From Escherichia phage vB_EcoP_HC-25922, in sequence record OQ555404.1: a DNA stretch of 64,000 bases. One strand, written 5' to 3'. The translations under genes were made by a program, and so were the position numbers. Below are positions 3,388-59,906 of the stretch, one piece after another; position 1 is the stretch's first letter, and each line of letters starts with the position of its first letter. The notes under the pieces were generated by a model that was given only the letters and a program-made list of their open reading frames with translations, searched no databases and was not told the DNA's origin.

Positions 3388-3396
3388 TAATGTATA
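3388..3396 (+). promoter_or_regulatory. TAATGTATA promoter-like motif (candidate phage-sigma promoter)
   Basis: exact 9-mer 33 nt upstream of the ATG at 3430; same motif and spacing recur at 20077 and 35772. Confidence 0.45.
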
Positions 3397-3429
3397 TTCT
3401 TTGTCTACATACAACTAGGAGGACAATCT

Positions 3430-4182: not shown

Positions 4183-4191
4183 GGAGATAAT

Positions 4192-29138: not shown

Positions 29139-29556
29139 ATTAATATTTCCTTATATAAATTTAAGATTGTTGCTCTCTTTGAGCGGTTTGTATACTATAT
29201 ACATTACACTTATACAGATAAGGTTCTATTATACTATAACCTTTTTGGTAGTAGATAATAACAAATAGTAATGTATATATATGGTATAGCTAGTAAAGCT
29301 ATTGCAGGCTTGTATATTGGGCAATTCATAGAATCCCTTGCAAGTACCGAAGGGCAGGAGCCACCTGCGAGATAAAAATAGAGAATTAAGGAAATCCTTG
29401 ATTTAGGTTGTAGGGACTCCTAGGGACTTTGATTCTCTATTTAAAAGAATATTAATTACTTACTACCTAAATAATTAACTAACTTACTTAAACCAAACTC
29501 AAGAATAATAGATAAAAAGATTATTCCTAAGAAAGCTAAAAAGTAAAGGATATAAG
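29139..29556. promoter_or_regulatory. 418-bp AT-rich noncoding region with divergent TAATGTATA motifs, palindromes and direct repeats
   Basis: no ORF of 60 aa or more; TAATGTATA on minus at 29198-29206 and on plus at 29269-29277; inverted repeat AAATAGAGAAT/ATTCTCTATTT; direct repeat TAGGGACT x2. Confidence 0.4.
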
Positions 29557-32325: not shown

Positions 32326-32637
32326 CTACTTCTCCACCACAAAGAGGTTAACTTCAATGAAAGTTTCGTATTGTGTTGACTCCTGCTTACGGGTGTAGTA
32401 GAAATGACGACCTTCTAATGCACCTCCGTACTGAGTGGCACATCTTTTAACCATCTCTTTTATCACATCTACAACTGATTCGCCTTTCCACGGACGTAAC
32501 CCCTGAGTTGGGACTTTTGCTGTACAGGTTACTTGTGTGTAACCTACATCTTGTAGAGATATCTCAAGAATCAGCTTTGCCCAAGCATCAAAATTAAGCT
32601 TGGGGTTATATTTAACTTCAGTTTTGATATCAATCAT
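32326..32637 (-). CDS. hypothetical protein
   Basis: 103 aa ORF directly downstream of the DNA polymerase gene. Confidence 0.4.
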   Translation of the reverse strand: MIDIKTEVKYNPKLNFDAWAKLILEISLQDVGYTQVTCTAKVPTQGLRPWKGESVVDVIKEMVKRCATQYGGALEGRHFYYTRKQESTQYETFIEVNLFVVEK

Positions 32638-34484
32638 TAGTGAGTATGATTCCAGTTTAATCCAATCTTACAATCTGATGCAAGAGGACATTCCATCTTG
32701 AGGTATTCCCCTGCTTTACGAACACATTCTTCAGTGAGGGTACGAAGTTTGTTAACATCATCACGATGTACAGTGAACTGTCCTTCATCATGCATGTCAA
32801 TAACCTTCGCACAACGAACACCATCCCGCTCAATCCATTTATTGAGGAATAGCATTGCATACTTCATAACAATCGCCCCAGCGCTCTGTAAGAGTGTATT
32901 TAAGGCTTTATGGACCATAACCTTTCCAGTTGCATCTCTTCTCATTGTAATACGACGTCCATCCACACCGTAGATATATCCACTTTGCGCTTTCTCTGTC
33001 ATACGTTCAATAAGGATTGCAATACAAGGGTTCTCTGCTAAGAATCTTGCTCTCATGATAGCCCCTTCGTCAGAGCCACCACCTACAATACTTCCTAACT
33101 TAGCGTCACCTGCCCCATAGTTAAAGGCATAGATAAACGTTTTAGCATTATCACGAGTAGGAAGGCCAGCAAGTTTTTGGTTATGTGAGTGAATATCTCC
33201 TTCTAAAAGAATATCTCTATACATAACAGCAGAAGCTAGACCACGTTCAGCTTCTCGTTTCTTAGCCGGGTTGTTTTCTCGCTCTGCTTCAGCGAGCATC
33301 TCACGACATTCTTTAATAAGGTAGTGAGCTAGCATCCTCAGCTCAAGACCAGAGCCATCGTAACCTAAGAAGATTTCACGACCAGCAGGAACATAGAACT
33401 TATAGGCACCTACGGGTTTGTCTTTCTTGCCCGGTTTTCCCACTTCGTAGATAATGTTAGTACCCTTTCGTACGTAACACCCATCAGGGATATGGTTGGT
33501 AATGATGAAAGGATGGTTATGACTATCGTCTGAGGAATAGTCAGATTGAAAAAGACTGCGGCACTCGTGACCAAACAAACCGCGAGAAGGAATATTAACA
33601 ACAATGCGATGTTTAAAACGAAATGTCGGAGTAGCGCAGCTATTAGCTTCGGCGGACAACTTACCATCTTTACGTTCCTTGTCGATAAGCCCGCTAATCA
33701 AACCTAGCCTGTGAGCCGCTACAACGCGTCTCTTAAGCAAACTTCCTACACCCCCTAGCTCACCCCCAAGCCCCTCTTCAAGAGTCTCCTCAAGGTTTGT
33801 AGGGGCTGTGGGCCACTTGTTTGATGTAGCCAAAGCTTTTTTGATTTCATCAAAGGTTACAGGTTTCTTCCTATTCGGATTAAGACCTAAACCACTGACG
33901 TAGGCTTTCATGTAGTTGACAGTGTGATAACGGAAATGTTTATCCAAAAATCTTCGGATATCAGCATCTATCATCTCCGCTGTCTGTTTCTCTTTAGCAT
34001 TACCTCGAATCCAAGCAGAATACCATGCAGAGTATGTACCATACTTCTTCATAGCTCTACGGATTTCAAATGTATTCCAAGGTTTCTTAGAATAATTCCA
34101 CTCTGGAGGTATGAAGCCCTCATCCATCAAGGCTTCTTTAATACGTGCATCTTTCGATGGGTCGAAGTCTACATACTCAACGCAAGTAAACGCCCCACCG
34201 ATATCTTCTCTTTTAAGACCAACCCTATCGCAATAGAGCTGAGGCCACTTCTGTAAAGCACCTGATTTCTTAAAAGGCTTAGCATAAGTTGAACCATCCA
34301 CCCGCATTTTAGGGAGGAGAGGAATCAGTTCTTTATCAATATTGACAATAATCTCTTTGAGAAGGTGAACAAACCACCGAGCGTTTCTTCTGTTGAAGTT
34401 GACTCCATGCTTCGCTTGTTTTGAGATTATATCAGCGACTGTCATCTCCGTTATGAAAGGTAACTTATCAGGGTTATCCATCAC
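32637..34484 (-). CDS. DNA polymerase, family A, polymerase domain only
   Basis: motif A GYDGSGLELR, motif B RDNAKTFIYAFNYG, motif C VIDMHDEG; no 3'-5' exonuclease motifs in this 615-aa ORF. Confidence 0.8.
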   Translation of the reverse strand: MMDNPDKLPFITEMTVADIISKQAKHGVNFNRRNARWFVHLLKEIIVNIDKELIPLLPKMRVDGSTYAKPFKKSGALQKWPQLYCDRVGLKREDIGGAFTCVEYVDFDPSKDARIKEALMDEGFIPPEWNYSKKPWNTFEIRRAMKKYGTYSAWYSAWIRGNAKEKQTAEMIDADIRRFLDKHFRYHTVNYMKAYVSGLGLNPNRKKPVTFDEIKKALATSNKWPTAPTNLEETLEEGLGGELGGVGSLLKRRVVAAHRLGLISGLIDKERKDGKLSAEANSCATPTFRFKHRIVVNIPSRGLFGHECRSLFQSDYSSDDSHNHPFIITNHIPDGCYVRKGTNIIYEVGKPGKKDKPVGAYKFYVPAGREIFLGYDGSGLELRMLAHYLIKECREMLAEAERENNPAKKREAERGLASAVMYRDILLEGDIHSHNQKLAGLPTRDNAKTFIYAFNYGAGDAKLGSIVGGGSDEGAIMRARFLAENPCIAILIERMTEKAQSGYIYGVDGRRITMRRDATGKVMVHKALNTLLQSAGAIVMKYAMLFLNKWIERDGVRCAKVIDMHDEGQFTVHRDDVNKLRTLTEECVRKAGEYLKMECPLASDCKIGLNWNHTH

Positions 34485-35771: not shown

Positions 35772-35780
35772 TATACATTA
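35772..35780 (-). promoter_or_regulatory. TAATGTATA promoter-like motif (minus strand)
   Basis: plus TATACATTA; 32 nt upstream of the start codon at 35739. Confidence 0.45.
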
Positions 35781-37496: not shown

Positions 37497-37805
37497 TTAG
37501 ATAACCTTGTGCTTATAGATGTTAGGGTTGTAGTAATGCAACCAGTTTATGTATTGCTTCTGTTCGAGGTAGTGCCTGCAATCATGACAAAAAGCATGAC
37601 CCAAACCTGTTTCCTCGTTCAGCTTGAAATTGATAAGAAGCTTCTGCTTTCGACAGAAGCTACATGCTTTAGTGGGCTTCACGTAATGCATCCCAAGAGA
37701 TTGGATATATTTTACGAAGCTCTTCATCAATGGTTGATGCGAACACTCGTACTTCGTACTGAGCATGGTCTGACAGTCGCTGACGACACAACTCTGACCA
37801 ACCAT
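37497..37805 (-). CDS. Cys/His-rich small protein (possible zinc-binding); start uncertain
   Basis: CSFCRK...CHDCRH; N-terminus overlaps the ThyX-like gene so the true start is probably internal. Confidence 0.3.
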   Translation of the reverse strand: MVGQSCVVSDCQTMLSTKYECSHQPLMKSFVKYIQSLGMHYVKPTKACSFCRKQKLLINFKLNEETGLGHAFCHDCRHYLEQKQYINWLHYYNPNIYKHKVI

Positions 37806-38319
37806 ATAGAGAACCGGTCCATACCCACTCAGTGATCATACCCTGAGGTAATACGAATCGAGCTTGTTCTGGAGCAATGAACTTAATCAATTCATCATAC
37901 GACTCAAGAGCTGTTTCATATGCTCGGTTAATCAGAACTAGTGCAGAGTTTTGTGCTCCTGTGGTGAGGAGATTCCCTGCACCTGCATGGAGGTCCGAAG
38001 GTCTTTCAAAAATCTCTTTAGGGATGAAGAGTTCAACTGCTCCATCTTTATACCGCCGGGACATTTCGTTCCACGAGAATCCAACTTGATGCTTGCCCAG
38101 CTGTCTCGCAATTGCGATTGGCGCTTTGCATCGGAAGCTAATTGTCGGATGGCGGAATGGTGTGACATGCTTTTCTCTGGCAAGGAACTTGATAAGGCGT
38201 TCATCTCGTTCATTTAACTCTCCTTCACGAGTAACCCCAAAGGAAACTCGAGCTGCATTAACAACAGATTTATCAGAACCCATTGCTTCAATTAGTGTTG
38301 CTTGTAATTGTTCGTTCAT
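37669..38319 (-). CDS. ThyX-family flavin-dependent thymidylate synthase homolog with non-canonical signature motif
   Basis: AARVSF, TPF.H...F..KAPI..ARQ, S.NE.S.RY, ARFVLP and DHAQ blocks align with ThyX; the RHR of the signature is KHQ here. Confidence 0.6.
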   Translation of the reverse strand: MNEQLQATLIEAMGSDKSVVNAARVSFGVTREGELNERDERLIKFLAREKHVTPFRHPTISFRCKAPIAIARQLGKHQVGFSWNEMSRRYKDGAVELFIPKEIFERPSDLHAGAGNLLTTGAQNSALVLINRAYETALESYDELIKFIAPEQARFVLPQGMITEWVWTGSLYGWSELCRQRLSDHAQYEVRVFASTIDEELRKIYPISWDALREAH

Positions 38320-39455: not shown

Positions 39456-40031
39456 TTAGTAAGACACATCACCACTGGAGTGGGACATGTTGCTCTTGAC
39501 GAAGTAACAGAACTTGCCAAGACCTTCATTAATTTCTTGAAGCATACTCTGGTCCACTGGATAGGTGCACAAGTCTGAATCAAACTCATCCATCTTCTCA
39601 ATGATACACATAAGAGTCATGCACATGTCGGAAAGCATACCGTCCATGTCAAGATCAGCGTTACCTTCTCGGAACCAAGCATGACCTAAATAATTACTAG
39701 CAGTAGCATCCACTTTAACACAATGAAAGCGCATACGCTCTGCTATTCGGTCGCCTGCCTCACGAGCATAATCTTCTAGTTCATCGAACATACCATGAAC
39801 ACCTTGGAAACCAGCTCCAGAGACGTTCCAGTGGTAGTTCTTTGCTTTGATGTGTAGAAGTTCAAGGTTAGCTTGCACACCACACAAGATGTGTTCTAAA
39901 CTGTTACCGCTAATCAGTTTATTCATTCCCTCAAGACGAGAGATAGAAGAGTCAGTAGTAGAGAATGGGTTGCTAGAACCCACTCGTGTTAGTTCTGGTA
40001 AGTCGAAGACATTATTATGCATTAGGTGCAT
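39456..40031 (-). CDS. Dps/ferritin-like protein
   Basis: AKNYHWNVSGAGFQGVHGMFDELEDYAREAGDRIAERM parallels the Dps ferroxidase-site helices. Confidence 0.55.
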   Translation of the reverse strand: MHLMHNNVFDLPELTRVGSSNPFSTTDSSISRLEGMNKLISGNSLEHILCGVQANLELLHIKAKNYHWNVSGAGFQGVHGMFDELEDYAREAGDRIAERMRFHCVKVDATASNYLGHAWFREGNADLDMDGMLSDMCMTLMCIIEKMDEFDSDLCTYPVDQSMLQEINEGLGKFCYFVKSNMSHSSGDVSY

Positions 40032-40362
40032 CCCCTTCTAAGTTAGTTGAATTAGCTACATTACGAGCAATGTTATCCATGACCTGCTGTGTAATAACAA
40101 TACAATTCTGAGGGTCTACTGATTTAGAACGCCCCATCTCAGGGTCATAGACTTTGACTCGCTTGGCTGTTGAGCCAGTAACTTGCAACACTTTGAGAAG
40201 ATAGCCTTGGTTTCCAATAGACCATGCAACAACATCACGATTCTTGATATAACGACCAAGCATGTCACGATGATAGAACTGCTGCATAACTTTAGCTTTG
40301 CTAATCTCTTCAGATGGCGGGGCCACTTTACTCAAATCTAACATAACTCTCTCCTGTTTCAT
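40015..40362 (-). CDS. hypothetical protein
   Basis: 115 aa ORF. Confidence 0.4.
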   Translation of the reverse strand: MKQERVMLDLSKVAPPSEEISKAKVMQQFYHRDMLGRYIKNRDVVAWSIGNQGYLLKVLQVTGSTAKRVKVYDPEMGRSKSVDPQNCIVITQQVMDNIARNVANSTNLEGDAPNA

Positions 40363-40414
40363 ACAATATTCTTATACTGTATATACATTTGAGAGTTATC
40401 ATATCTACTACCAA

Positions 40415-41038: not shown

Positions 41039-41572
41039 TTATACACCCTTAGATGCAACTACACCATTACTGCCGTTGTATCGACCCTTCACTGCATAAG
41101 AGTCATCACCAGCGTGAGAGTGTTCGAACATAACCATTTGACCAACACGCATCCCAGCACGAACTCGTAAGCTATGATTATGGGTAACGTTATGAAATTC
41201 AAAGGTTAGTTTACTGCTGTTAAACCCTGCATCAGCCCAACCAGCATGGAGGTGGTTTAAACCACAACGAGCCATTGAGGAGCGAAGTACAAACAGGCTT
41301 GAGATGTTATCTGGAAGGTTAAACTCTTCCATTGAGTGCGCTAAGAAGAATTGCCCCGGAGTGATAACAATACCATCTTCAGGGATTTTTACTTCTTTCC
41401 ACTTGAGGTTTTCTTTAGCATCAATGTCAACAATTCCGTCAGCCTGTTCTTCAACAAGGATAGTATCACCAATACGGATATCCACGCTAGCAGCGTTAAC
41501 ATATTTATGCTCCGCATCTAAAAAGCCATTATCAATAACGCTGTGTAATTCTTGAGAACCTAAAAGACTCAT
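41039..41572 (-). CDS. dcd: dCTP deaminase family protein
   Basis: ASVDIRIG and RSSMARCGL blocks and the C-terminal YNGSNGVVAS region parallel bacterial Dcd. Confidence 0.65.
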   Translation of the reverse strand: MSLLGSQELHSVIDNGFLDAEHKYVNAASVDIRIGDTILVEEQADGIVDIDAKENLKWKEVKIPEDGIVITPGQFFLAHSMEEFNLPDNISSLFVLRSSMARCGLNHLHAGWADAGFNSSKLTFEFHNVTHNHSLRVRAGMRVGQMVMFEHSHAGDDSYAVKGRYNGSNGVVASKGV

Positions 41573-43032
41573 GAGTTTCTGTTTCCTTGTACAGATGATG
41601 CCAAATTATTAATCATGTTACGAGCTGTTTCACGAGATAGTGTAACACCTGCTAAGTTGTTATGAAGCTCACCAGATAGCTCACGAGCAGCAGCTCGAAG
41701 TTCTGTACCAAGTGTAGTATCGGAGTGAGCCAAACCATTACGACGACTATAAGGTCGAGGAGCTTCGTTAGCGTCATTAGCCAATGATGCAAAACCAATA
41801 TGAGCAGCTTCACGAGCCGCTATAGTTGACACTCGATCTTCCGTAGGGGTTGGCAAATCACCAACTTCTACACGTTCTATATCACCAGCACGTAGACCCT
41901 GAACGACTGAGCTTACTGTTTCCCATGAACGACGAGAACGCTGTAAATCACCCATTGACGGAGAAGAAGCAGGTCGAACAGTTACTCCACCTGTATCATG
42001 AGTGACATGCCATGTACGAGTATCCATTCCAGAAGAGCGTGCACTACCAAAACTGCCAGTGAAAGTGTCACGAGGTGCCATTGTAGGAGGAACTGCGAAT
42101 CTTTCCTGTTGCCAAGAATCGCGTCTGTTAGTTCCCGGAGTCCAAGGCTGCGTGATTGCTTCAGCACCTATAGTGGTTAATCCGCTAGACCATTCTGTCT
42201 GTAGGTTAACTTCCTCGTCCAGATAACTACGACCCCTTTCCTGAGGAATGTTTAATATAGTTTCCATCATCTTCAGGGTATAATGACGACGCTGATTCTG
42301 ATATAAATTTACACCAGCCATAGGTCCAACTAAATCACTAATCAGGTGAACTTCTGGCTCACCGAAAGCTCCCATTGCAAGGTGCATATATTCGATAGAA
42401 CTGCTATAAACTGCAACAGTTGCTTCAGGCCACTTTTTGTGAACATACTTCATTTCACGACTAGATACCACAGGAATGTCACGAGTGTATGACATTGCAA
42501 ACAAACCTTCGTTTGACACATACATGTCATCAAGAGACATGAACCCCTGACAGATCATAGGAAAGCGACGGCTTAAAGTATCCATATCCAAAGGTAGATT
42601 AATCATCATCTGGATTTTAACTTGATCAATCTCAATTTCCAGAATCTCTTGGAAAGTGAAAAGTGATTCAGTATAGGTTGTTCCACTGATAGGCTGAACT
42701 AGTCGAGATGTAACTTGAAGCCCCTTACTCTCTGTCCAAGACAAGAAGTTGTCAAGGAATAGTGCAGCATTACTTACGTTAGCAGGGCTGTTTTCCTGAC
42801 GAGTGTTCCAACGGAACCCTCCTTGAACTAGGAAGATATCAACATCATTCGGAGTTCGATTTTGGAAGAACGTATCACGGATAGCACCACCTGCAATGAC
42901 AGGATAGATACCATCAGGGACTACGTTATCTCTGATCAGATTGCGAATCAGATCAAGCCCTACGCTGAGGGCTTCTCCTTCTTGAAGGTTTAATTCAGAC
43001 AATGGAATCTTAATCATTTCTACATTTTCCAA
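41569..43032 (-). CDS. Pol-beta superfamily nucleotidyltransferase, CCA-adding/poly(A) polymerase-like head
   Basis: AGGAIRD-x9-DVD matches the GGxVRD...DxD head motif of class II tRNA nucleotidyltransferases; overlaps the exonuclease gene by 13 nt. Confidence 0.5.
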
Positions 43033-43568
43033 TTTAGAGATGGGGGATTCTTATAATCAAATCCAGCCATTTGACAAAGACACATGTAAACTTTAACTGT
43101 CAAGTTAACGTCTTGCTCACAATAGGTGAACATGTCTTCAGTGAATGCGTCCCATGCCTCCTCCTGTTCTCCATAATCTCCTTTCAGCTCCCCAAGAAAC
43201 TCGCCCCATTGTTTGAGGCCGTGACCACGAGGGCCATGTCTAGGGTCGCCTTTGGGGTATTCTGGACTATCACCAATACGGTCAGGCTTGAGATATCTAC
43301 TCAGGCACAAAGTATCGAAGACGTTAAAGCGAAAAGGTATCACATGAGAATAAAACTTAAACAAAGCAGGAAGGTCAAAATCAATAATATTGTGACCTAT
43401 TACTACATCAGCTTCTTTCAGTTTGTGTAGTGCTTCTTCAATTTGGTGAGGGCGATACCCCCACCGCTCTCCAGATAATACATCAAATATCCAGATACAC
43501 CAGACATTCTGAATACCATCATAGAGATTATCCCCCTCGATATCAAACGCATACAGTTTCTTTACCAC
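43020..43568 (-). CDS. DEDDy 3'-5' exonuclease (DnaQ-like), likely proofreading partner of the polymerase
   Basis: Exo I YAFDIEGD, Exo II HNIIDFD, Exo III YCEQD. Confidence 0.6.
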
Positions 43569-45352
43569 GGACGTGCCTCCCCTTCTTGTGCAAGTAAGGA
43601 AGCTGCATCCTCTCCATTGGTAACGGTAAAAGGATGCTCTTCATCAACTTCATGATCTTCTCGTTCTACAAGACGACCTGTTTCATTGATGTATTTGGTA
43701 TAGCAAACCCCTGTCTGTCCATAGTTACGCTCTTTGAGCAGTCGTATGATTGACAAGTTTTTACCTAACCCATCCGCTTGTTTATTACGTTCAAAACCAA
43801 TAATACACTGACACCAGCGCATCAATGAACGTGAACCAGTAAACTGTACTTCTTTAACCTGACCACCTTCTTCGTGGGGTGCACCACCTGCCGGAGCGTT
43901 CAAGTGAGATAATACAAAAGCAGTGAAGTCTAATTCCTTACACATACCAGCAAGCTCTGAAGCAATCTTGCTGATTTCTGTGTTTACCTCAGATGGGGTT
44001 AAGTGAGATACCAATGCAGTGATGTTATCAAGAATGATAAATTTACACTGATTCTCAACTACCCAAAAGCGAATACACTGCTTAATGTCTTCCCACTCGT
44101 TCTGCCCAAAGTTGTCATACAAGAAAAACTTATCAGCGTATCGAAGTGCTTCATCTCGTAGCTGGCTTTCTTCGTACTCAACATCTGGTCGGTGGAATGG
44201 AATAGATGCAGATTTACCTGCAATGTTCTTAACAGACATGCCTACCTTCTCTTCCAAGAAGAAGCCACCACCATTAAAACCATGCTCAAGGCAAAGCCAT
44301 GCTACTAGTTCGTGTGCGATTAAGGTTTTACCTGAACCAACACCACCGCCGATTGCAACCATCTCTCCCCAACGAATACCAAAGGTCATGTCGTTAAGAG
44401 TTTTCCACGGATAAGGAATACCCCATTCCGCTTTCTTCAGAGCATCTTCGAGGCAATCAAAAACTGTAACAGCTCCAGCAGGGGATTCCCGCTTAGCTGA
44501 ATATTTCAGATTGTTGAAAAGCTCTTGACCTCTCCCTGCAAGTAACATGTCGTTTGCATCTTTGATTTCCTTTTCTTGTCCGTTATAAGTGAACGTACCT
44601 TTTGGAATCCTTGCAAACTTAACATGCGGGTACAGAGAACGACCCTTAGTTAAAGCAATCTCACCTGCATCATCATTGTCCATGCAGAGTACAATCTCCT
44701 CGAAACCATTAATAAAATCACGGTTTCTTGATAATACAGAAGAGATTGAACCTGCACCGAACGGAAGAGAGACGCAAGCAGGTTTGATGTTAGTTGCGTT
44801 TGTAAACGCGGTAAGTACGTGGAACCCAGACATACAAGAGAGAGGATCTTCAAAGATGAAGAGTTTCTTGTTGTATACGTCACCACGTTGTGCTTGAGCC
44901 ATACCAAACAAGTCGGCTTCTTTCACATTACCTACATAATAGAACTTCTTGCTGTCTAGAAGTTTTACTTCATATCCAACAATGTTCCCATCACGTTCAC
45001 GAGGGAAGAAGTAGCTGTCAGGAGTTTGACCATCTGTTTGGCTTAAACCGATACGGCATCCATAACGTTCAGATACAGCTTTAGGGATTAAGCGACGAGT
45101 CAACTCTCCCTGAGGAAGCTCTAAGCAATCGTCTAAGACTTCTCGGAGTTCTTCAGGGGACAGCTCTTTCTTTTCATTAGGAGTGGGCGTCGTTCCTTTC
45201 TCGAAGATTTCATACGCACCACATCTGTTACATGAACCCCACTCCTCACCGGACTCTTCATTTCGGAAGAGAATCATGTGATTGCGGGTCTTATCACGAC
45301 CATGAGAGATACACTCTTTACAGCCCGTGTCTCCCAAAATGATCTTTGACAT
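43562..45352 (-). CDS. primase-helicase (T7 gp4-like)
   Basis: N-terminal Cys4 zinc-binding region (CKEC...CNRC), Walker [10 protein letters not shown] in DnaB-like helicase context. Confidence 0.8.
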
Positions 45353-45387: not shown

Positions 45388-45594
45388 TTAGTAAAACGAT
45401 CGTATTTCTTCCCACACATCATCTTGCAAGTTTCTAAAACCCTGCAAGGTTTGCTTTGTTCTGTGAATAAATTCTTCAGAGTGCTTATCAGGTGTGAGCA
45501 TACTGACAAACTTTTCATAGCGATTAATCTTCCACCGCATCTTCAAGTAGTCAGATTCCAGCTTTCTTAACTTCTGCCTGTCAGTTACTGTCAT
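45388..45594 (-). CDS. hypothetical small protein
   Basis: start set at internal Met to reduce overlap with upstream gene. Confidence 0.3.
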   Translation of the reverse strand: MTVTDRQKLRKLESDYLKMRWKINRYEKFVSMLTPDKHSEEFIHRTKQTLQGFRNLQDDVWEEIRSFY

Positions 45595-46012
45595 CCTTCT
45601 CACCTGCCAGATATGCTGTCCAGTCACCAGATTCAACCAGAACATCTTGTTCTTCGTCGATGTGATAAATCCACGCTTCCACAGTTTCACCGCTGTCCAA
45701 TAATACTGGAATCAGTGTACGCTTGTAAAAGGTGTATGGGTTATCATTACCACGATGACCTTCCAGACCGTCATACGGACCTTCCAGACCAGCTTGGGTT
45801 GTTTCAAAGACTTCTACACGAACAGGCTTACCGTTGCTGTCATGCTCCAAAGATACACTTGGGAAGTATGCTGTGCAATACTGATACAGGTTACAGTTGT
45901 TTACTGTCCACCCTTCACCAATAGACACACCACCTGCACGAGCATTGATAGCGTGGTTGTGTTGACCTTTACGAAGAGAACCATACGTTGCAACTAATAC
46001 TTTATCAGACAT
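45581..46012 (-). CDS. gamma-glutamyl cyclotransferase-like (AIG2/GGCT fold) protein
   Basis: N-terminal VATYGSLRKGQHNH resembles the YGSL motif of the GGCT/AIG2 family. Confidence 0.45.
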   Translation of the reverse strand: MSDKVLVATYGSLRKGQHNHAINARAGGVSIGEGWTVNNCNLYQYCTAYFPSVSLEHDSNGKPVRVEVFETTQAGLEGPYDGLEGHRGNDNPYTFYKRTLIPVLLDSGETVEAWIYHIDEEQDVLVESGDWTAYLAGEKDDSN

Positions 46013-46016
46013 TACA

Positions 46017-46214
46017 TTACCTTTTGTTTAAAATTTCTTTTGTACAAGAAGTCCCGTTACACACGAGAACTGTTTGAGTTATAGAATCGACAACTGTTAC
46101 ATGGCTGCCGCATTGAGTTATGATTTGACCTCTCCCTGAATCTTTAGAGATGCATTCATCAGCGGCGATCGCTGACACACTGAATAAGGAGAGGAAAAAT
46201 AGAATCTTTTTCAT
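46017..46214 (-). CDS. small secreted Cys-rich protein
   Basis: signal-peptide-like MKKILFFLSLFSVSAIA followed by 6 Cys. Confidence 0.35.
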   Translation of the reverse strand: MKKILFFLSLFSVSAIAADECISKDSGRGQIITQCGSHVTVVDSITQTVLVCNGTSCTKEILNKR

Positions 46215-46220
46215 GGCTGC

Positions 46221-46637
46221 TTACCAATCATGTTGGAAACCAGAATATCCAGAGAAGATGATTGATCGGATTGGCTTTTCAGGGAATTCTTCAAAACATC
46301 CCTTAATGGCTTTCTTGGTTTCATCAGAAATTGACTCTTTTTCACCAAACCAATATTCTTCAAAAATATCAGAGAAGATATAAGTTCGGTATCTTTCCAA
46401 GTCATAAAAACCTTCCACTGCACTTGTAACAGCTCTACTAATTACACTTGAAGCTACAGGAAATAAGTCACCGTGTTCCAGAAACAAGCACCAACGATCA
46501 AAGAGAGGAATCTCTTCATCTTTCAGAAGACTTTCTAACTCTTCCTTTGCCTCTTTCTTGTGCTTCTCAAAGAGGTTTTTGGAATACTCTACATCTAAGA
46601 TACGACTTTTAAACATATCCAGTTTATTATTAACCAT
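46221..46637 (-). CDS. hypothetical protein
   Basis: 138 aa ORF. Confidence 0.4.
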   Translation of the reverse strand: MVNNKLDMFKSRILDVEYSKNLFEKHKKEAKEELESLLKDEEIPLFDRWCLFLEHGDLFPVASSVISRAVTSAVEGFYDLERYRTYIFSDIFEEYWFGEKESISDETKKAIKGCFEEFPEKPIRSIIFSGYSGFQHDW

Positions 46638-46694
46638 TTTACAACCTCTAGTTAAATTCGAACTAGCCTCCTCTTTCGAAGAGGCTAAAGCAAA

Positions 46695-46880
46695 TTATTC
46701 TACTTCGAAGTGTTTGATCACACCAGTCAGTACATCAGATTGGAATGTACCCACTAGCTCTGTACCTCGGAAGAAGTTAACACTTGTTCCAAGTGCTTCA
46801 AAGCGATCTGCTTGAATGTCCAGAGATTGAATATTTCCTTCTGCTGACATTGTACGAAACATGATTGTGTATTTATTCAC
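46695..46880 (-). CDS. hypothetical small protein
   Basis: 61 aa ORF. Confidence 0.3.
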   Translation of the reverse strand: MNKYTIMFRTMSAEGNIQSLDIQADRFEALGTSVNFFRGTELVGTFQSDVLTGVIKHFEVE

Positions 46881-47119
46881 AGACTTGTTACTCCCTTATC
46901 TGCTTGTGCAATTGCGATGATACGCTCAGCACATTCCATTGAATATTTATCACCTCGTTTGAGGAAGGTGATGATTGCAGAGAACTGATTACCAATCATT
47001 CTCTTATTTGTGATACCGAACTCTTCACAGAGTTGGTTGATAGCTTTACGAGAGCCTACAATCAGAGGCTCTTTTTCTTCGGTCATTCCACGGCTGATCA
47101 AATCTTCGATAGACAACAT
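46877..47119 (-). CDS. hypothetical protein
   Basis: 80 aa ORF. Confidence 0.35.
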   Translation of the reverse strand: MLSIEDLISRGMTEEKEPLIVGSRKAINQLCEEFGITNKRMIGNQFSAIITFLKRGDKYSMECAERIIAIAQADKGVTSL

Positions 47120-47145
47120 TACAAATTCCTTTTTGTTTAATTTAA

Positions 47146-48381
47146 TTACAGAGTTACTGCTACTTCGCTACCTTCAACATTTACAGACTCTAACTTGCGA
47201 GGGTTATGAATCTGGACTGGATTGACCGGAACGTTCCAACCACTGCGGTAGAAGTTACGACCATCACAGAACAGGATGACATTGGCAGACATTGCATTCG
47301 GTTGCAGGTTGTTGTGGACATGACGGATATTTGCAATCCAGTAGCCACGAGACAAAGTGTAGCCAGTAGGTGCATTACGAATAGTTTGAGTATTCATCTG
47401 ACCTTCCAGTTGCATTTCTTCAGGAACCACATCAACTGAATCAATCGGCTGTGCTACTTGTCCTTCCAGTGCAAAGTTTTCATCATCAGCACTTTCAATA
47501 TCATCCACTAACTCACCGTCTCCATCTTCAATCGGAGTCTGGTAAACCACTTTATACTGAGGAGTATAGAGAGGGTTCTGAGCTTTAACAAACTCAAGAA
47601 TGTTATGACGGTAGGTATCCAGAGTTGTACCAGTCAGGCCCGGTGCTGTATTAACTTCCAGTACCCACGCTTCTTGACCTTTGGTGATAATATCAACTGC
47701 ACCGAAATCCAGACCCATTGATTCAACAGCTTTCACTGCATTGATCAGAGAGGCGTCATTCGGAGCATCTGTGAAGGAGCTTGAGTAAACCCAGCCAGTG
47801 TGGTGATTACGAATATCTTCACGATAGTTAGGGTCTTCGCGATAACCATTGCGACGAATCTTCTTCTGAACATAGGTGATTACACCTTTGAACACATGGA
47901 CACGCCACTCACGACGTGGGCCTTGAATGCCTTTAGTGTACAGTTCAGCTCGACCAAGACCATCACCCGGTTCTACAACAACAATGCCCGAACCAGAGTG
48001 ACCAGTCAGCTCATGGCGCTCATACACAATATTACCAGTGTTTGACCACTCTTGAGCAGTCTCTTGAACATCTGTGTATTCCACAGTTTTAACACCTGCT
48101 TGGTCCATCACGCTGAAAGCACGACGTTTGTTCGCTGCCATATGTAAGGCTGCGGTACGGTTAAGGACGGTTGCAGAACCAAAGAATGATTCAGGATAGC
48201 GACGGTTCCCGTAGTTAACAACCACATCACCTTCACGAGAACGCCAGCGGCTATTCTCTGAAAGAAGACCCATCACGTTAGCATTGATGCGTTCATCACG
48301 GATAGTATCACTGATAGCAGATACTAGAGCGTTAACAGAATCAGACGGGCCATACGGAAGAACACGGATACGAGTAGTCAT
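47146..48381 (-). CDS. ATP-grasp ligase (RimK/glutathione synthetase-like)
   Basis: GHSGSGIVVV and FGAVDIITKGQEAWVLEVNTAPG match ATP-grasp nucleotide-binding motifs. Confidence 0.6.
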   Translation of the reverse strand: MTTRIRVLPYGPSDSVNALVSAISDTIRDERINANVMGLLSENSRWRSREGDVVVNYGNRRYPESFFGSATVLNRTAALHMAANKRRAFSVMDQAGVKTVEYTDVQETAQEWSNTGNIVYERHELTGHSGSGIVVVEPGDGLGRAELYTKGIQGPRREWRVHVFKGVITYVQKKIRRNGYREDPNYREDIRNHHTGWVYSSSFTDAPNDASLINAVKAVESMGLDFGAVDIITKGQEAWVLEVNTAPGLTGTTLDTYRHNILEFVKAQNPLYTPQYKVVYQTPIEDGDGELVDDIESADDENFALEGQVAQPIDSVDVVPEEMQLEGQMNTQTIRNAPTGYTLSRGYWIANIRHVHNNLQPNAMSANVILFCDGRNFYRSGWNVPVNPVQIHNPRKLESVNVEGSEVAVTL

Positions 48382-48383
48382 TT

Positions 48384-48614
48384 TTAGATACCTTTTAGTT
48401 TAAGAATTTCGTTACGACAGGATTGAATTTTAGCTTCGATTGCCCAATACTCAGCGAACATTTCGTCTTCTTGGGCATCACTTGGAGAGTCGATTAAGTT
48501 AAAAGCAAACGGATACAGCTTTCGCTGCTCCGTTACCAGTTGTTGAAGTCGGAGTTGTTGATACTCCAGCATTGTCAGGTGAGGCTTAGCTCCCTTGCTT
48601 GACATGAGGCTCAA
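48384..48614 (-). CDS. hypothetical small protein
   Basis: 76 aa ORF between ATP-grasp and GATase genes. Confidence 0.3.
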   Translation of the reverse strand: MSLMSSKGAKPHLTMLEYQQLRLQQLVTEQRKLYPFAFNLIDSPSDAQEDEMFAEYWAIEAKIQSCRNEILKLKGI

Positions 48615-48819
48615 CTTTAATCCCCTTCATTTTAACATAGTCAGCCAACACGTTATTGATAACGGTTGGAAAAGGGATTTCTACTGGAGAGTCAACCAGC
48701 TTCCCAATACCTTCTTGCATCCACTTCTGGATTGCTCGGAGGTTATCACATCCTGTGCTTGTCATCGGAATACGGCGGGTAGTTACCACGTTATCCAACA
48801 TCAGTTTACGAACTTCCAT
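48586..48819 (-). CDS. hypothetical small protein
   Basis: 77 aa ORF overlapping the previous one by 29 nt. Confidence 0.3.
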   Translation of the reverse strand: MEVRKLMLDNVVTTRRIPMTSTGCDNLRAIQKWMQEGIGKLVDSPVEIPFPTVINNVLADYVKMKGIKVEPHVKQGS

Positions 48820-48830
48820 AACTATACCTC

Positions 48831-50864
48831 TTAGTGTTTACCTTTACAGTAATCTGAATTACAGATCACCCTGTTTTCTTTGTTCAGTGAGCAAGTTTCT
48901 GCATCACGCCACGGAATTTGTTTATAACAGACTGCACAAAACCCAATTGAAGTCCAGAGGGCTTTTGTAAACTCAGCTGTTCGTTGTCCATCGTAACTGA
49001 CAACTGTTTTTCGGAGAGAGGTTGACTTTTCTGGAAATGTCTCCGCTTTCTCAGCGGGTACCTCCTTTGGGGCATTCTTTGGACCATAAACAGAGATGGC
49101 ATAAGTATCACCACCACGTTTTTCCAAATACGAATTAGGAACATCTGCAAGTGTGATGTCCCCTGAACGTTTTGCTGAGCTGACCATTACAATCATACGG
49201 CTAAGCATACGTTCATCAACACGAACAGCTACTTCAGGACGACGTGGGTTGGTTGTGTCTACTGCTTTAGTCCAAATATAACCTTCAGATAGAGTAACAT
49301 TCTTTACTTTATCTTTGATTTCTTTGGAGCAGATATAACAAACGTCTTCACCACGAAGTTTACTCATTTCGTTGTCAAACTCGAAATCAGTCTTGACTTC
49401 ACCACAGATAGCACATACACCCAAAGGCACATCTTCTTCCTCTTCAGAGGTTTTAGATAACGCTTCGAAGCATTCTGGATGCCAGTATGCCTGATAAGCA
49501 AACACAGCCTTACGAGCATCTTTCCAGTCAATGTGCTTATCACAACCACCACAGTCACCATGAGAGTGAGATTCCCAGAACTTACGAGTGACTTCTACAC
49601 CATTCTTAGTGATGAAGGAGTCCTCTGCATCAAAAGGGATATCATCATCAAAATCAGCAGTAGTGCTTTGAGGCTCCTTATCTGTAGCATCAACAAACAG
49701 CCCTGAAGTTAGTACGAGGCGAATCATACTGTCCACTTCGGAGATACAAGCAATCGTCCCGCGATATACTACCTTTGGGTTTTCAAGAGCCTTAAGATAT
49801 TCATCTTTGGCTACGTTGTGAACATCCCCTTCGACATACTCTTGAGCTTTATCATCGTAGATGTAACCAACCATCTTACCACGATCTGTGTTGTTATAAG
49901 CATGGAACTCGTGAGGAATAATATCCACACGACCATCACGACGATAAGGAAGACCACGATCGGCAGCCAGTTTGTTCTGGTCTTCAATCGCTTTACGACG
50001 ACGAATGTCTCCGCTTGTCACGCCGGGCTTGTCGTCTTTGTTTCCGTAAATGTCGCTTGTGCTGCTGCTTGATTTGTTTGTCTGTTGGTTCTGATAAAGA
50101 GAGGAGTTCGAGTAATAGCCGCCCCAGCGACTCGTTACCGTAAAAACCGGAAGCGTGTGCTCCACCTCTTGAACCAGAGTCATACGACTGTTAGACACAT
50201 CAAAGATATACTCAGTTCCCACTTTACATTCGAAGTGGTCATTGATACGGTTCTTATGGGACTTAGAACGCTCTAAAATCCACATAAGCATAGCTTCTTC
50301 AGAAGCTCCAAACCAATCCAAACCACAGCGGGCTAGGTGGAAAGGACGCTCATCATTACGGATAATGTGAAGTGTGTTGTCTTTAGCATCATGCCAAATC
50401 AAAGTGAATGCACCATCCAGTTTTTGGATAGTCTCTGCTGCTCCAATGGTGTTAATTGAGTGGCAGATGTTTTCACTATCAACTTCGAAACGCTTACTGT
50501 CAGGAAGGAGATCTTGATCTAACAGGGTTCCATTATGAACCAGAGTAATATCCCCGTGAGTAAATGGGTGAGCATTTCGAGCATTGACAGCCCCACGAGT
50601 GGCATGTCGGCTGTGACCAACAATCCACGAAGGAGGAACTACGTAGTTCGTAAGCCCTTTGGTAATATTTGTATATTCTGTCTGGAGCATAAAAGCATAA
50701 GAAGGAAGAGCTTCTTTATAAGAGAAGACTTGCTTTTCACCTTTACGCTGACCAAACACACCAGTTGAGTGCTGTCCACGGAAAACACCAGCATACAGAA
50801 GTTGGTTGAAAATGTCCAAATCTGCTGAGGTCATGTTGCCGCCAGCTAATACGATACCACAAAT
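48831..50864 (-). CDS. class II (Ntn) glutamine amidotransferase domain protein with C-terminal Cys-rich region; probable AUU start
   Basis: NAHPF...HNG GATase II motif; extending in frame to ATT at 50862-50864 gives MCGIVLAGG with AGGTGG SD 8 nt upstream; multiple CxxC pairs in the C-terminal third. Confidence 0.55.
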   Translation of the reverse strand: MCGIVLAGGNMTSADLDIFNQLLYAGVFRGQHSTGVFGQRKGEKQVFSYKEALPSYAFMLQTEYTNITKGLTNYVVPPSWIVGHSRHATRGAVNARNAHPFTHGDITLVHNGTLLDQDLLPDSKRFEVDSENICHSINTIGAAETIQKLDGAFTLIWHDAKDNTLHIIRNDERPFHLARCGLDWFGASEEAMLMWILERSKSHKNRINDHFECKVGTEYIFDVSNSRMTLVQEVEHTLPVFTVTSRWGGYYSNSSLYQNQQTNKSSSSTSDIYGNKDDKPGVTSGDIRRRKAIEDQNKLAADRGLPYRRDGRVDIIPHEFHAYNNTDRGKMVGYIYDDKAQEYVEGDVHNVAKDEYLKALENPKVVYRGTIACISEVDSMIRLVLTSGLFVDATDKEPQSTTADFDDDIPFDAEDSFITKNGVEVTRKFWESHSHGDCGGCDKHIDWKDARKAVFAYQAYWHPECFEALSKTSEEEEDVPLGVCAICGEVKTDFEFDNEMSKLRGEDVCYICSKEIKDKVKNVTLSEGYIWTKAVDTTNPRRPEVAVRVDERMLSRMIVMVSSAKRSGDITLADVPNSYLEKRGGDTYAISVYGPKNAPKEVPAEKAETFPEKSTSLRKTVVSYDGQRTAEFTKALWTSIGFCAVCYKQIPWRDAETCSLNKENRVICNSDYCKGKH

Positions 50865-50941
50865 TTTCTAATCCACCTGAAGGGTAAACCCTTTCATCTA
50901 ATTAACCTTTAAATGCGCCCTGTATAAGAGCGCCCGTTGTG

Positions 50942-52042
50942 TTACAGCAGTCGTTCTAATTGCATTTCCAGATGGTCTGGAATATAACCAGTGACGTTAT
51001 CATCACTGCTACCTGATTCACGCATCAATGCAAACATGTGACGAATTTCACGAACCGTTGCGATTCGAGTGCTTTCAATCTGAGGGGTGTAGTAGGTCAT
51101 GATCTCTTCGTAGACACTGTTGGCATTACCGCGCACATATCCCAAGAAACCATAGAAGTCATTCATATCACGTAAGTTGATAAGGACTTCACCATCAGGG
51201 CCAGTCTGTTGCACACGAACACGACCAACCAAAGTTACAGATTGCTCACGACAGAAGAGAATATCACGAGCAAGACGATACCCTTCAGTGAGATCACTGT
51301 CTCTTGGAGTATAGTCTAGGGGTAGATGTTGAATCATAGGAGCGAAGCGCAGCTCATTCAACTTCTCAACATAAGCTTCATTGTCTAAATCTGCATATTC
51401 AACAGCCAGTTTCTTGAGAACCAAGAAGCGGTTGACCAGATTCAGAAGTTGGCTCTTTTTCCACTTCGGCTCTGAGATACGGAACTCAACAGAACCAAAT
51501 TGAGATAGAGGCAAAAGATTAAGGGAGGTATATTTATCCCAGCTATTAACAAGAGAGTGGAAGAAAGCTTCCCCGTCTCGGTTGAACGCTGACGAAGCAT
51601 TCATAACTTGTGCTTGAACGACAGCAAAAGCTGGACAGAAGTTGCTACGATAGCGATGGTATCCAGAACATTTGAACATCATCTTTTCATAGAACGTCCA
51701 TCCAAGAATAACTTTCTTAAGGATATTACTATCAGCGTCACGCATATCCATATGAACGTGAGTGGAGCAGCGCCAAGTTCCCTCGGCTCCAGAATCCTGT
51801 ACTGCTTCACTCAGATTGTTAATAGCACGAAGTAATTCTTCACCGTTGTAAGGTCGTGCACATACTAATTCACAACCATCACGAAGAGAGCCATCTTCAG
51901 TACAAACCCACATATCAGCGTCAATGTCAGTTGTACCTTCGACTTCTAACTCAATACCAACACCACACTGAAAAGCAATACTTGGATGCGGTTCAGATAA
52001 GCGAGGGTTACGGTATCCAAAAACTTGTGCTACGGTTGTCAT
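50942..52042 (-). CDS. amidoligase-family protein
   Basis: GVGIELEVEG and STHVHMDM motifs resemble the phage amidoligase family. Confidence 0.5.
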   Translation of the reverse strand: MTTVAQVFGYRNPRLSEPHPSIAFQCGVGIELEVEGTTDIDADMWVCTEDGSLRDGCELVCARPYNGEELLRAINNLSEAVQDSGAEGTWRCSTHVHMDMRDADSNILKKVILGWTFYEKMMFKCSGYHRYRSNFCPAFAVVQAQVMNASSAFNRDGEAFFHSLVNSWDKYTSLNLLPLSQFGSVEFRISEPKWKKSQLLNLVNRFLVLKKLAVEYADLDNEAYVEKLNELRFAPMIQHLPLDYTPRDSDLTEGYRLARDILFCREQSVTLVGRVRVQQTGPDGEVLINLRDMNDFYGFLGYVRGNANSVYEEIMTYYTPQIESTRIATVREIRHMFALMRESGSSDDNVTGYIPDHLEMQLERLL

Positions 52043-52665
52043 AATGATTCCACCAACTCTACATTATATGATGACAGGTCTGAAGAAATATGCTTGAACT
52101 TCTCCAGAAGGTTTAAAGATTGACGACCATTGTCGCCATAACCAGCTTCAAGAAGCACGTTTCCAACGTAAGCCCCTTTGTAATAAACTTTTCCATCGAC
52201 AGGATTGATATAGATGAAACGAGTAACCAACCCTTCAAACTCTGGATTAAACAGGTTGTACACCAAATCACCCGGAATCGAACGTCCGAGAGAAGGTGGA
52301 GTACCACGAAGTTTATTCCCCATCAAGCCTTTAGCTCGCTGACGAACAGGGTTGATATGGGTCCAGCTCACCATGTTATTGCCATGCTGAAGGTATCCTA
52401 CATCTGGAGACTCCAGAATGAGGCTGTGATCAAACACTGGGATATTACTAACAATCTGACGTTCAAACTGACCTTCGGAGTTTTTAGTCCAGCGCTCCGC
52501 CTCAAACACTAAAGACATTTCAGCGTCGTGTGAGTAGTCGTCGATATCAAAGTTACCTTGCTGACGAACATCAAGCACATATAGAGGGAGGTTTTTACCA
52601 TCAGGTGATCGCTGAGCAATCCATGTTCCACAATAATAGTGTTGAAAATCTCTTAACAAGCTCAC
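52039..52665 (-). CDS. hypothetical protein
   Basis: 208 aa ORF overlapping the amidoligase start by 4 nt. Confidence 0.4.
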   Translation of the reverse strand: MSLLRDFQHYYCGTWIAQRSPDGKNLPLYVLDVRQQGNFDIDDYSHDAEMSLVFEAERWTKNSEGQFERQIVSNIPVFDHSLILESPDVGYLQHGNNMVSWTHINPVRQRAKGLMGNKLRGTPPSLGRSIPGDLVYNLFNPEFEGLVTRFIYINPVDGKVYYKGAYVGNVLLEAGYGDNGRQSLNLLEKFKHISSDLSSYNVELVESL

Positions 52666-52674
52666 AATATCACC

Positions 52675-53481
52675 TTATACAATCTGGAGTTTAGAGGAGA
52701 ATTTATCCGCTTCTTTAACATCGTTACTGTTGATGATGTTGTGAAGCTTTTCAATTGGAAGGCGAGAGTGAAGTGACATCAATACTTCCATATCACAGCC
52801 TTGAACAACCTTATCAACTTGCTCATAAACAAACTTGCGGGTTGACTTCTCGCCAATCCAGAAGTTAGAAAGAGAACGATATTCAATACCGTAATCTTTG
52901 TAGCGAATGGCAGAAGCCTTTCCGTATAACTCTTTACGACGAGTATCTTTATCCATGATCACAGCTGGCAAGGACAGGAAGTAATCACACAACACACCCA
53001 ACATCATTTGAGTCTGACGACTAATTTCCAGCGTACCAGTGACGCCAAGGTGAACATGACCACCAGCAGTACGCAGACCTTTGTCTGTCGCTACTGGAGA
53101 TGGGTTTTTCTGACCAGTGAAGGCGTTGAAATCAGGAGTACAACCAAATACAAAGGCTGACGGATGGAAAGATTCCATCTCTTCTGAAGTGAACACATGA
53201 GAGCTAATCCCAAGTGCTGCCTCCATGCCACGTTCATTGAGAACTTTGTTAGTCAGATCAATACCACGCTGAATGTTATCATTAAACGCTTCAAACCCTT
53301 TCTGTGGGTTAATATCGAACTCGGCCAGAACGTTGTCTTCTTGAAGACGAACATCAGGGGCCAGATCAATTTTGTTGTCTTTAGAGCAGCCCAGCTTACC
53401 AGCCACAGAGGTGATAATACCAGAAGCAGTACGAACAAACATTTCAGGGTCAGAACCAATAAGGAAAGCACGCTTAGTCAT
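52675..53481 (-). CDS. second amidoligase-like protein
   Basis: FLIGSDPEMFV and GGHVHLG parallel the motifs of 50942-52042; start set at MTKRAF. Confidence 0.35.
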   Translation of the reverse strand: MTKRAFLIGSDPEMFVRTASGIITSVAGKLGCSKDNKIDLAPDVRLQEDNVLAEFDINPQKGFEAFNDNIQRGIDLTNKVLNERGMEAALGISSHVFTSEEMESFHPSAFVFGCTPDFNAFTGQKNPSPVATDKGLRTAGGHVHLGVTGTLEISRQTQMMLGVLCDYFLSLPAVIMDKDTRRKELYGKASAIRYKDYGIEYRSLSNFWIGEKSTRKFVYEQVDKVVQGCDMEVLMSLHSRLPIEKLHNIINSNDVKEADKFSSKLQIV

Positions 53482-54424
53482 TGTAATACTCCACGAGTTC
53501 ATCAAAAAGGGAAACAACACGAGCACCAGCTTCTTCTGGTGTCATTGAGGAAGGTACTGCTTGCATCAGACGTTCGATAAAACTTCGAACAGTAATTCTG
53601 TCCATACGCTGATCTAATACTTCTCGCTTGTGACCTGCACAAGTTGACCAGAGACGTAACCACTCACTCATACTCTCATAATGGTCAGGGTCTTGGTCAC
53701 GACGACGTGCCATACGACGGAGAACTCCATCATTATGGTTTCGTACATAACCATCTCGGTTGTCATCAACACCGAATACATTCTGAACCCATACGTTTTC
53801 AGAAAATTCATCAGTGGTGCAAATTAATGGCAGAAATGCAATTGCACTCATGTCGCCATCAAAATAAGTCGCTGCTGACTCATCGGTTGAGCCTACGTCA
53901 TTACTATAACACCAGCGACCAAAGAAGTTACGACTTAAACCAGCTAAGCGTAGAGCTAAACCGATTCGTTGTCGCTTAAGCAACTCTTCCTTGTCTTGTA
54001 CGCCTTCCTGAAGGAACTCCATTCCATTAAAATCACCATCCAAATAGCTACGGATGGTCATTAGTCCAGTAAACACCTTGTCTGCTGGATGGTTTCGAAG
54101 GTTCACGGCAATGGAGTTCACCGAAGTGACAGAGAACATATCTTTATAGCAAGACATTGAGTTAAAAATATCTGTTGCTTCAACTAAAGCTCTTTCGATA
54201 TCTTTAGCTGGCACGCCATAAAAATTGTGAGGCCAGAAGTTAATAACTTCAATTTCTGAAGTTCTATCACGAAGGCTTGTTCGGTTACGACTTTCACCGT
54301 TAATGTCTGTAACAGAATACATGTGCATACAGTTAAAAGTACCAAAGCAAGCTCTTCCTTTGAACACTGACTCACCGAAATCCTCTGCCGATGTTACCGG
54401 AGCAATCGATGCGGAGATTGACAT
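53474..54424 (-). CDS. hypothetical protein
   Basis: 316 aa ORF in the amidoligase cluster. Confidence 0.4.
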   Translation of the reverse strand: MSISASIAPVTSAEDFGESVFKGRACFGTFNCMHMYSVTDINGESRNRTSLRDRTSEIEVINFWPHNFYGVPAKDIERALVEATDIFNSMSCYKDMFSVTSVNSIAVNLRNHPADKVFTGLMTIRSYLDGDFNGMEFLQEGVQDKEELLKRQRIGLALRLAGLSRNFFGRWCYSNDVGSTDESAATYFDGDMSAIAFLPLICTTDEFSENVWVQNVFGVDDNRDGYVRNHNDGVLRRMARRRDQDPDHYESMSEWLRLWSTCAGHKREVLDQRMDRITVRSFIERLMQAVPSSMTPEEAGARVVSLFDELVEYYND

Positions 54425-54432
54425 ATTCGCCT

Positions 54433-55650: not shown

Positions 55651-55660
55651 TTTTACCTCT

Positions 55661-59780: not shown

Positions 59781-59804
59781 CTACGTTGATTTAAAAGCTC
59801 TTAG

Positions 59805-59883
<79 letters not shown>

Positions 59884-59906
59884 ATTAAGAGCTTTCAATA
59901 TTTTGT

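Follow-up and report, generated by a model that had tools for sequence, protein, structure and literature searches.

A gene on the minus strand of Escherichia phage vB_EcoP_HC-25922 (sequence record OQ555404.1, of which a stretch of 64,000 nucleotides, the window, was analysed) encodes a predicted nucleotidyltransferase whose head domain is closest in fold to the class II enzymes, the CCA-adding enzymes together with the poly(A) polymerases (PAPs). As the overall best explanation, to which we give a probability of roughly 0.4, we propose that this transferase is an active, template-independent class II-type nucleotidyltransferase with an RNA 3' end as its acceptor. The parts of this proposal differ in strength: the fold and catalytic competence, taken jointly, are highly probable, and the choice of RNA as acceptor is a guess that falls somewhat short of even odds.

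The head domain and its relatives

Counted from the likely start codon, ATG 43017, the protein can be laid out along the minus strand as follows:

42403..43017, minus strand: catalytic head domain, residues 1-205, with a Pol-beta-superfamily fold closest to the class II CCA/PAP head
42838..42891, minus strand: motif A, G43 G44 A I R47 D48 - x9 - D58 V D60, invariant in 27/27 family members
42646..42648, minus strand: E124, candidate third catalytic carboxylate in strand 122-130, in a column that is D or E in 27/27 members
42433..42459, minus strand: family-specific R187-[D/E]188-x-x-Y191-x-x-K194-K195 in helix 186-195, with D/E188, Y191 and K195 conserved in 27/27 members
42169..42402, minus strand: small helical region, residues 206-283, with AlphaFold2 (AF2) helices 207-218, 238-255 and 259-265, ending in the conserved W276-S-x-G-L280
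41572..42168, minus strand: C-terminal tail, residues 284-482, predicted from composition and from the predicted local distance difference test (pLDDT) to be disordered or only conditionally helical

Motif A is the one segment that can be aligned to class II enzymes with confidence. It unites the helix-turn glycine pair with two metal-binding carboxylates within residues 43-60, and its sequence, GGAIRD-x9-DVD, reproduces the class II signature of GGxVRD followed by DxD. As none of the 27 family representatives departs from it, a chance match can be dismissed, and G43, G44, R47, D48, D58 and D60 persist down to 22% identity. The assignment of E124 as the third catalytic carboxylate rests on strand order in the predicted model, and this residue therefore stays a candidate. 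In the same way, secondary-structure order would place helix 186-195 roughly where class II enzymes have motif D (EDxxR); the hhalign alignment is confident over motif A only and unreliable over motifs B-D, this helix included. We suspect that this [D/E]188-x2-Y191-x3-K195 helix contacts the nucleotide.

The family to which these counts refer was defined by an exhaustive HMMER scan of 1.84 billion cluster representatives (50% identity), and it is small, with no more than 27 clusters recovered. The exhaustive scan was needed, since word-indexed protein searches returned only relatives of at least 87% identity and one distant member. All 27 members share an N-terminal core of ~210 residues in which G43, G44, R47, D48, D58, D60, F62, Y115, I125, Q136, P153, Y191 and K195 are invariant and positions 124 and 188 are always acidic.

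The earlier note on this DNA had assigned the protein a class II-type head, and this call on the fold holds, with profile searches matching class II enzymes only, if weakly. The family profile run against PDB sequences recovered class II CCA-adding enzymes and nothing else (E 0.0016 at best, with motif A as the aligned part), a comparison by hhalign with five class II heads gave a probability of 90% (E 1.4e-6, again carried by motif A), and sub-threshold matches to PF01743, the PolyA_pol head family, occur in 18 of the 27 members (best E 2.5e-4) with no other Pfam family recurring; phmmer with the single transferase protein against PDB sequences yielded nothing relevant. Family X DNA polymerases (Pol beta, lambda, mu, TdT) have in common with the transferase the catalytic core of the Pol-beta superfamily, with its three carboxylates, and they are not its closest relatives, so that a grouping with polymerase beta-type enzymes, which would have counted against the earlier assignment, did not emerge. 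The distance to the class II enzymes (PF01743; the B. stearothermophilus (Bst) CCA-adding enzyme 1MIV, E. coli PAP I 3AQL and the A. aeolicus (Aae) A-adding enzyme 4WBY) is nevertheless large, with sequence identities to the phage protein of 13-15% and a motif A spacer of x9 in the phage family as against x8 in the E. coli, Bst, Aae and P. halocryophilus enzymes.

Among viral proteins, the nearest structural neighbours are small head-only proteins of T7-like podophages (Foldseek E 1e-6 to 1e-9), which are labelled 'poly(A) polymerase head domain' or 'tRNA nucleotidyltransferase' and belong to phrog_1614, a profile matched by 27/27 members of our family. Examples come from Providencia phage PS3, Aeromonas phiAS7, Pseudomonas LKD16, Pantoea LIMEzero and Pectobacterium PP47/PP2. 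The head-only architecture is common to both groups and sequence similarity between them is limited to motif A; at 167-220 residues the podophage proteins are shorter, and the present family adds a helical stub with the WSxGL motif and, in Gordonclarkvirinae, a long tail. In Pectobacterium phages such small proteins are annotated as tRNA nucleotidyltransferases, and the order of gene labels in the map legend puts them between the helicase and DNA polymerase genes (PMC7693777). A bacterial protein of 191 residues described as a 'CCA-adding enzyme head domain' (Streptococcus pneumoniae NP_344798.1, PDB 2LA3) is structurally less similar to the transferase than the full-length class II enzymes are.

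Beyond the head, conservation falls away. In the longer homologues W276, S277 and L280 hardly vary, and tblastn alignments to Kuravirus homologues end at residue 283. Values of pLDDT are below 50 for residues 281-433 and 447-482, and the tail, which has a high content of R/S/T/A (22 Arg, 0 Lys), differs in length and is poorly conserved, with insertions and deletions even between near-identical phages; in the distant homologues (274-321 residues) it is unrelated or absent. Several short homologues from uncultured relatives end in aromatic residues (P0026, P0030-P0034 and P0036: …GGWTF, …RWQW, …RRFNF, …TTWDW, …SEYDF, …REVW and …RSEW). In the source phage it is the primase/helicase that ends in such a residue, with …EARPW (43562-43567), and the transferase ends …GNRNS, without an aromatic terminus.

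From these features we envision a stand-alone, divergent class II-type enzyme made of a head domain, a short helical stub and a disordered tail of ~200 residues. Two metal ions would be bound by D58, D60 and probably E124, and the nucleoside monophosphate of a (d)NTP would be transferred without a template to a 3'-OH. By homology, the most likely acceptor would be the 3' end of an RNA, either a tRNA or another transcript, since every solved close relative extends RNA. The choice of nucleotide and the recognition of the target would differ from those of CCA enzymes and PAP I, because the sugar-sensing motif B, the base-templating motif D and the tRNA-binding body and tail are absent; both might instead rest with the [D/E]188-Y191-K195 helix or the WSxGL motif, or else with the tail or a partner protein. 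The catalytic competence and the type of reaction are here inferred.

Start codon and gene neighbourhood

Judged by sequence, the source phage belongs to the phiEco32 group of Gordonclarkvirinae: the 4.4-kb region around the transferase gene shares 99.1% identity with Escherichia phage IME267 and 88-99% with other phiEco32-like podophages. Its minus strand carries, in order, the genes for a primase/helicase, the exonuclease, the transferase and a dCTP deaminase:

43562-45352, minus strand: primase/helicase gene (ORF list, Pfam, PHROG and comparison with Bas87)
43020..43568, minus strand: DEDDy 3'-5' exonuclease gene, 182 residues (Pfam DNA_pol_A_exo1; PHROG 'DNA polymerase exonuclease subunit')
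43015..43022, minus strand: junction TAG-AA-ATG (TAGAAATG), read directly from the sequence, with exonuclease stop, 2-nt spacer and transferase start
41569..43017, minus strand: nucleotidyltransferase gene, 482 residues from ATG 43017, with its stop codon at 41569-41571 (ORF list; PHROG 12715)
41039..41572, minus strand: dCTP deaminase gene, downstream neighbour of the transferase gene (Pfam DCD, E 1.6e-34)

The longest open reading frame (ORF) of the transferase, 41569..43032 on the minus strand, gives 487 residues if the first possible start, TTG 43032, is used. We consider ATG 43017 the likely start instead, because the alignment to PHROG 12715 begins there, the initial methionine is invariant in homologues and annotated relatives use the same position. 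This profile, named 'nucleotidyltransferase', is matched over its full length (E 1.2e-165; ORF residues 6-480 of 487 against profile positions 1-456 of 457), residue 6 of the 487-residue ORF being the methionine of ATG 43017; homologues all open with MIxIP with M1 invariant; and annotated relatives start at the equivalent ATG, the coding sequence of the relative Bas87 having the same length of 1449 nt. Bas87, a BASEL isolate, has 94% DNA identity to the window and on that basis falls in the same genus. The earlier note had described a 487-residue protein with a GGxxRD-x9-DxD motif whose start overlaps the exonuclease stop by 13 nt. Here the motif stands, in 27 of 27 members, the length becomes 482 residues, and the overlap, which rested on the mechanical choice of TTG 43032, gives way to a 2-nt spacer: the exonuclease stop TAG occupies 43022-43020 and is followed by AA and then by the transferase ATG. 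Among relatives the spacing at this junction extends from an overlap of 4 nt to a gap of 21 nt. Such tight packing would be compatible with translational coupling, yet it is the local norm, as the neighbouring pairs overlap as well, by 7 nt between the helicase and exonuclease genes and by 4 nt between the transferase stop and the dCTP deaminase gene.

The place of the gene is constant. Three different family members used as tblastn queries each retrieved 97 cultured-phage records with an identical organism breakdown, all of them Escherichia/Shigella Gordonclarkvirinae, and the transferase gene is invariably located between the exonuclease and dCTP deaminase genes. Uncultured relatives (22-30% identity) retain the order helicase, exonuclease, transferase, deaminase. 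This synteny is inherited with the whole module, hence it is no independent evidence of functional coupling. In the sister group Grimontviridae, Salmonella phage 7-11 and Proteus phage Privateer have the exonuclease gene followed directly by the dCTP deaminase gene with no transferase between them. Because the two genes remain adjacent there without it, the transferase gene is a lineage-specific accessory insertion on which neither neighbour depends; on our proposal, it would have entered between exonuclease subunit and deaminase, within the replication module of Gordonclarkvirinae and of the uncultured relatives of this group. As a side observation, several HNH/NUMOD4 homing-endonuclease genes interrupt the same module in uncultured relatives (3184-6510 and 10286-11816 of L006, 3820-4332 of L008), and in L006 the primase part and the helicase part each form an ORF of their own.

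The identification of the upstream gene as a DEDDy exonuclease, also made in the earlier note, is confirmed by the Exo I (DxE), Exo II (Nx2-3[F/Y]D) and Exo III (Yx3D, here YCEQD) motifs in its translation and by a match to Pfam DNA_pol_A_exo1 (PF01612; E 3e-5, 24.2 bits against a threshold of 23.6). Its only PDB matches are to T7 DNA polymerase (gp5), residues 4-142 (E 4e-8), and every one of its homologues in 1725 phage records sits within a DNA polymerase gene. The counterpart lies 8.5 kb downstream:

32637..34484, minus strand: polymerase subunit, 615 residues (Pfam DNA_pol_A, residues 363-612)

This subunit has no exonuclease domain in a Pfam scan, and it aligns confidently only with residues 496-702 of T7 DNA polymerase, the C-terminal part of the polymerase domain. 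These results identify the exonuclease as the proofreading subunit of a family A DNA polymerase of the T7 type that is split in two. The idea that it might serve the transferase rather than the polymerase is not supported by this comparison, nor by the presence of the same subunit without an adjacent transferase in 7-11 and Privateer. About 20 genes separate the two polymerase subunits, among them those for the dCTP deaminase, a Dps/ferritin-like protein, thioredoxin, ThyX and PhoH.

Expression of the transferase would go along with that of the early and replication genes. The phiEco32 gp36 sigma-factor element tAATGTAtA has matches at 40382-40390, 35772-35780 and 29198-29206 on the minus strand and at 3388, 20077 and 29269 on the plus strand; they comprise five exact copies and AAATGTATA just upstream of the ORF 40015-40362. 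With up to one mismatch the motif occurs 24 times against 18.7 expected from shuffles and is not enriched in the window. None of the six located matches lies between the helicase and deaminase genes, which fits transcription of the transferase with the upstream early unit, and in mass spectrometry the SU10 homologue was seen as one of the early gene products (PMC4281155). As for the exonuclease-transferase junction itself (AAATGTAGA), a phi32_gp36-type promoter was considered there and rejected on account of two mismatches and the lack of enrichment. Upstream of the replication genes, a conserved early-gene cluster on the minus strand (45581-56023), common to phage 7-11, includes genes that carry, in the annotation of Bas87, the names gamma-glutamyl cyclotransferase (45581-46012), RimK-like ATP-grasp ligase, GlmS-like glutamine amidotransferase, amidoligase and COOH-NH2 ligase; the cluster looks like a peptide- or metabolite-modifying system.

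Weighing the substrate

A number of observations count against the proposed action on RNA 3' ends. The comparison with PolyA_pol/CCA profiles, which the earlier note had put forward as a check, came out only in part: class II enzymes were the sole matches, but the source protein reaches just 12.1 bits (E 0.25) against PF01743, where the gathering cut-off is 23, and a Pfam scan of the full protein returned no match at E ≤1. Motif B (RRD), the part of class II enzymes that senses the ribose 2'-OH, occurs in the catalytic domain of none of the 27 members, and the arginines of 'SRRFP' in the source protein are not conserved (R in 2/27 and 7/27). No member has motif D ([ED]DxxR) in its catalytic domain, the lone match, in P0023, lying at residue 266, outside the head. 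Where class II enzymes combine these motifs with a helical tRNA-binding body and tail, the phage protein has no Pfam RNA-binding domain, and ~75 helical residues after the head lead into its disordered tail of ~200 residues (pLDDT <50). This tail offers no obvious nucleic-acid-binding arm: its isoelectric point (pI) spans 4.5-10.9 across the family, so that a basic RNA-binding tail was rejected as a family trait. Furthermore, the constant position in a module for DNA replication and nucleotide metabolism would fit a DNA-related substrate equally well, the E. coli host already has Cca and PcnB, either of which would be duplicated without obvious benefit, and in the literature we found no biochemical work on the family or on the small head-only podophage relatives. 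The acidity of the head (pI 4.6) was rejected as a further argument against nucleic-acid binding, as the head of E. coli Cca is similarly acidic (pI 5.3). Because of the sub-threshold Pfam score, the lack of motifs B and D and the missing tRNA-binding body and tail, the transferase is, as far as sequence and predicted structure indicate, a divergent class II-type enzyme and not a canonical CCA-adding one.

These same absences bear on the reading that annotations in NJ01 and SU10 imply, namely that the protein is a genuine CCA-adding or tRNA 3'-end repair enzyme, which would finish CCA-less tRNA-like transcripts of the phage or rebuild tRNA ends damaged by host defences. Its closest solved relatives are CCA-adding enzymes, and host Cca matters for T4 infection according to Morse and Deutscher (1976), as cited in PMC7693777. 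The window also holds a possible substrate:

59788-59898 (core 59805-59883), minus strand: atypical tRNA-like element (Rfam tRNA, 36.4 bits)

ARAGORN reported no tRNA in the window. In this element the anticodon loop reads CUUCUAA (UCU, Arg) and the T arm is normal, but 4 nt stand in for the D arm, a 20-nt variable insert is present and no CCA is encoded; its acceptor stem is lengthened by a 13-bp flanking helix (UUGAAAGCUCUUA / UAAGAGCUUUUAA), with a fold z-score of -5.4. The earlier note had argued from a tRNA-like gene lacking CCA. Such a gene is indeed present, but the argument is weak, for the transferase is conserved regardless of the CCA-less element: Bas87, with the same transferase, has at the same locus a canonical tRNA-Arg with encoded CCA, and among Gordonclarkvirinae records the full element is shared only with phage TH42, the CCA-less variant being missing from nearly all others. 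Sequences with 82-92% identity to the core occur in Justusliebigvirus, Felixounavirus and jumbo coliphages, a finding suggestive of a mobile or exchanged module. With motifs B and D and the tRNA-binding parts missing, and with the host supplying its own Cca, we hold a true CCA-adding function to be rather improbable. An acceptor other than nucleic acid, such that the transferase nucleotidylylates a protein or small molecule, or makes or consumes a signalling nucleotide, in counter-defence or host takeover, is quite unlikely as well; class II enzymes are clearly the closest by structure and motif, and no partner effector or sensor is evident nearby.

A role directed at DNA, whether on DNA 3' ends, on deoxynucleotides or in a covalent modification of DNA that confers restriction resistance, is unlikely but is the main alternative, and it draws on several lines of evidence. 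Gordonclarkvirinae have been reported to be remarkably resistant to restriction, neither a modification pathway nor an inhibitor being known, and the authors of that report point to the deaminase and the nucleotidyltransferase, speculating that the two might make a covalent DNA modification (Humolli et al. 2025, PMC11990801). In the window, 12 of the 64 palindromic hexamers are absent, including the PstI and SacI sites (~15 expected), GATC stands at 0.44 of expectation and CCWGG is nearly absent; such avoidance is partial, and as the full cause of the resistance it was rejected. With 9 EcoRI, 29 EcoRV, 5 EcoKI and 106 EcoP1 sites left, the published resistance needs another explanation. The loss of motif B, the ribose 2'-OH sensor, would permit the use of dNTPs, and the module in which the gene is invariably found is one of replication and nucleotide metabolism. 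The position of the gene, however, was inherited with the module as a whole, 7-11 and Privateer have the deaminase but no transferase, so that the two form no obligate pair, a ThyX thymidylate synthase gene (37669-38319) argues against a simple substitution of dU for T, and all solved class II relatives act on RNA. To our knowledge, no phage DNA modification pathway uses a class II-type nucleotidyltransferase. The bolder version, in which the transferase is the missing factor in the restriction resistance, having lost ribose discrimination and acting on phage DNA or its precursors, for instance by attaching or priming a covalent modification, is a long shot. Least probable, and by our estimate very unlikely indeed, is that the protein retains only the fold and serves as a catalytically dead scaffold in the replisome. 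The long disordered tail would suit a scaffold, close packing against the gene of the exonuclease subunit suggests co-expression, and the aromatic ends (W or F) of several short homologues are reminiscent of the C-terminal aromatic tails with which T7 gp4 and gp2.5 dock the polymerase; the invariant active-site residues G43, G44, R47, D48, D58 and D60 argue for retained catalysis instead, and relatives replicate without the transferase.

Significance for the phage lineage

The gene and its domain-level annotation are already public, the product being 98-99% identical to RefSeq proteins labelled 'nucleotidyltransferase' and discussed as such by Humolli et al. (2025). What is added here is a sharper definition, that of a head-only, tail-bearing offshoot of class II that lacks motifs B and D, is confined to one phage lineage and is inserted between two genes that work without it elsewhere. 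Were the transferase the missing factor in restriction resistance, a DNA-protective role would be seen for the first time in a class II-type nucleotidyltransferase, and relatives without it, such as 7-11 and Privateer, would be restriction-sensitive. The identity of its substrate could explain how abundant, broadly restriction-resistant coliphages protect themselves, or else what the many small 'poly(A) polymerase head' proteins do in T7-like phages.

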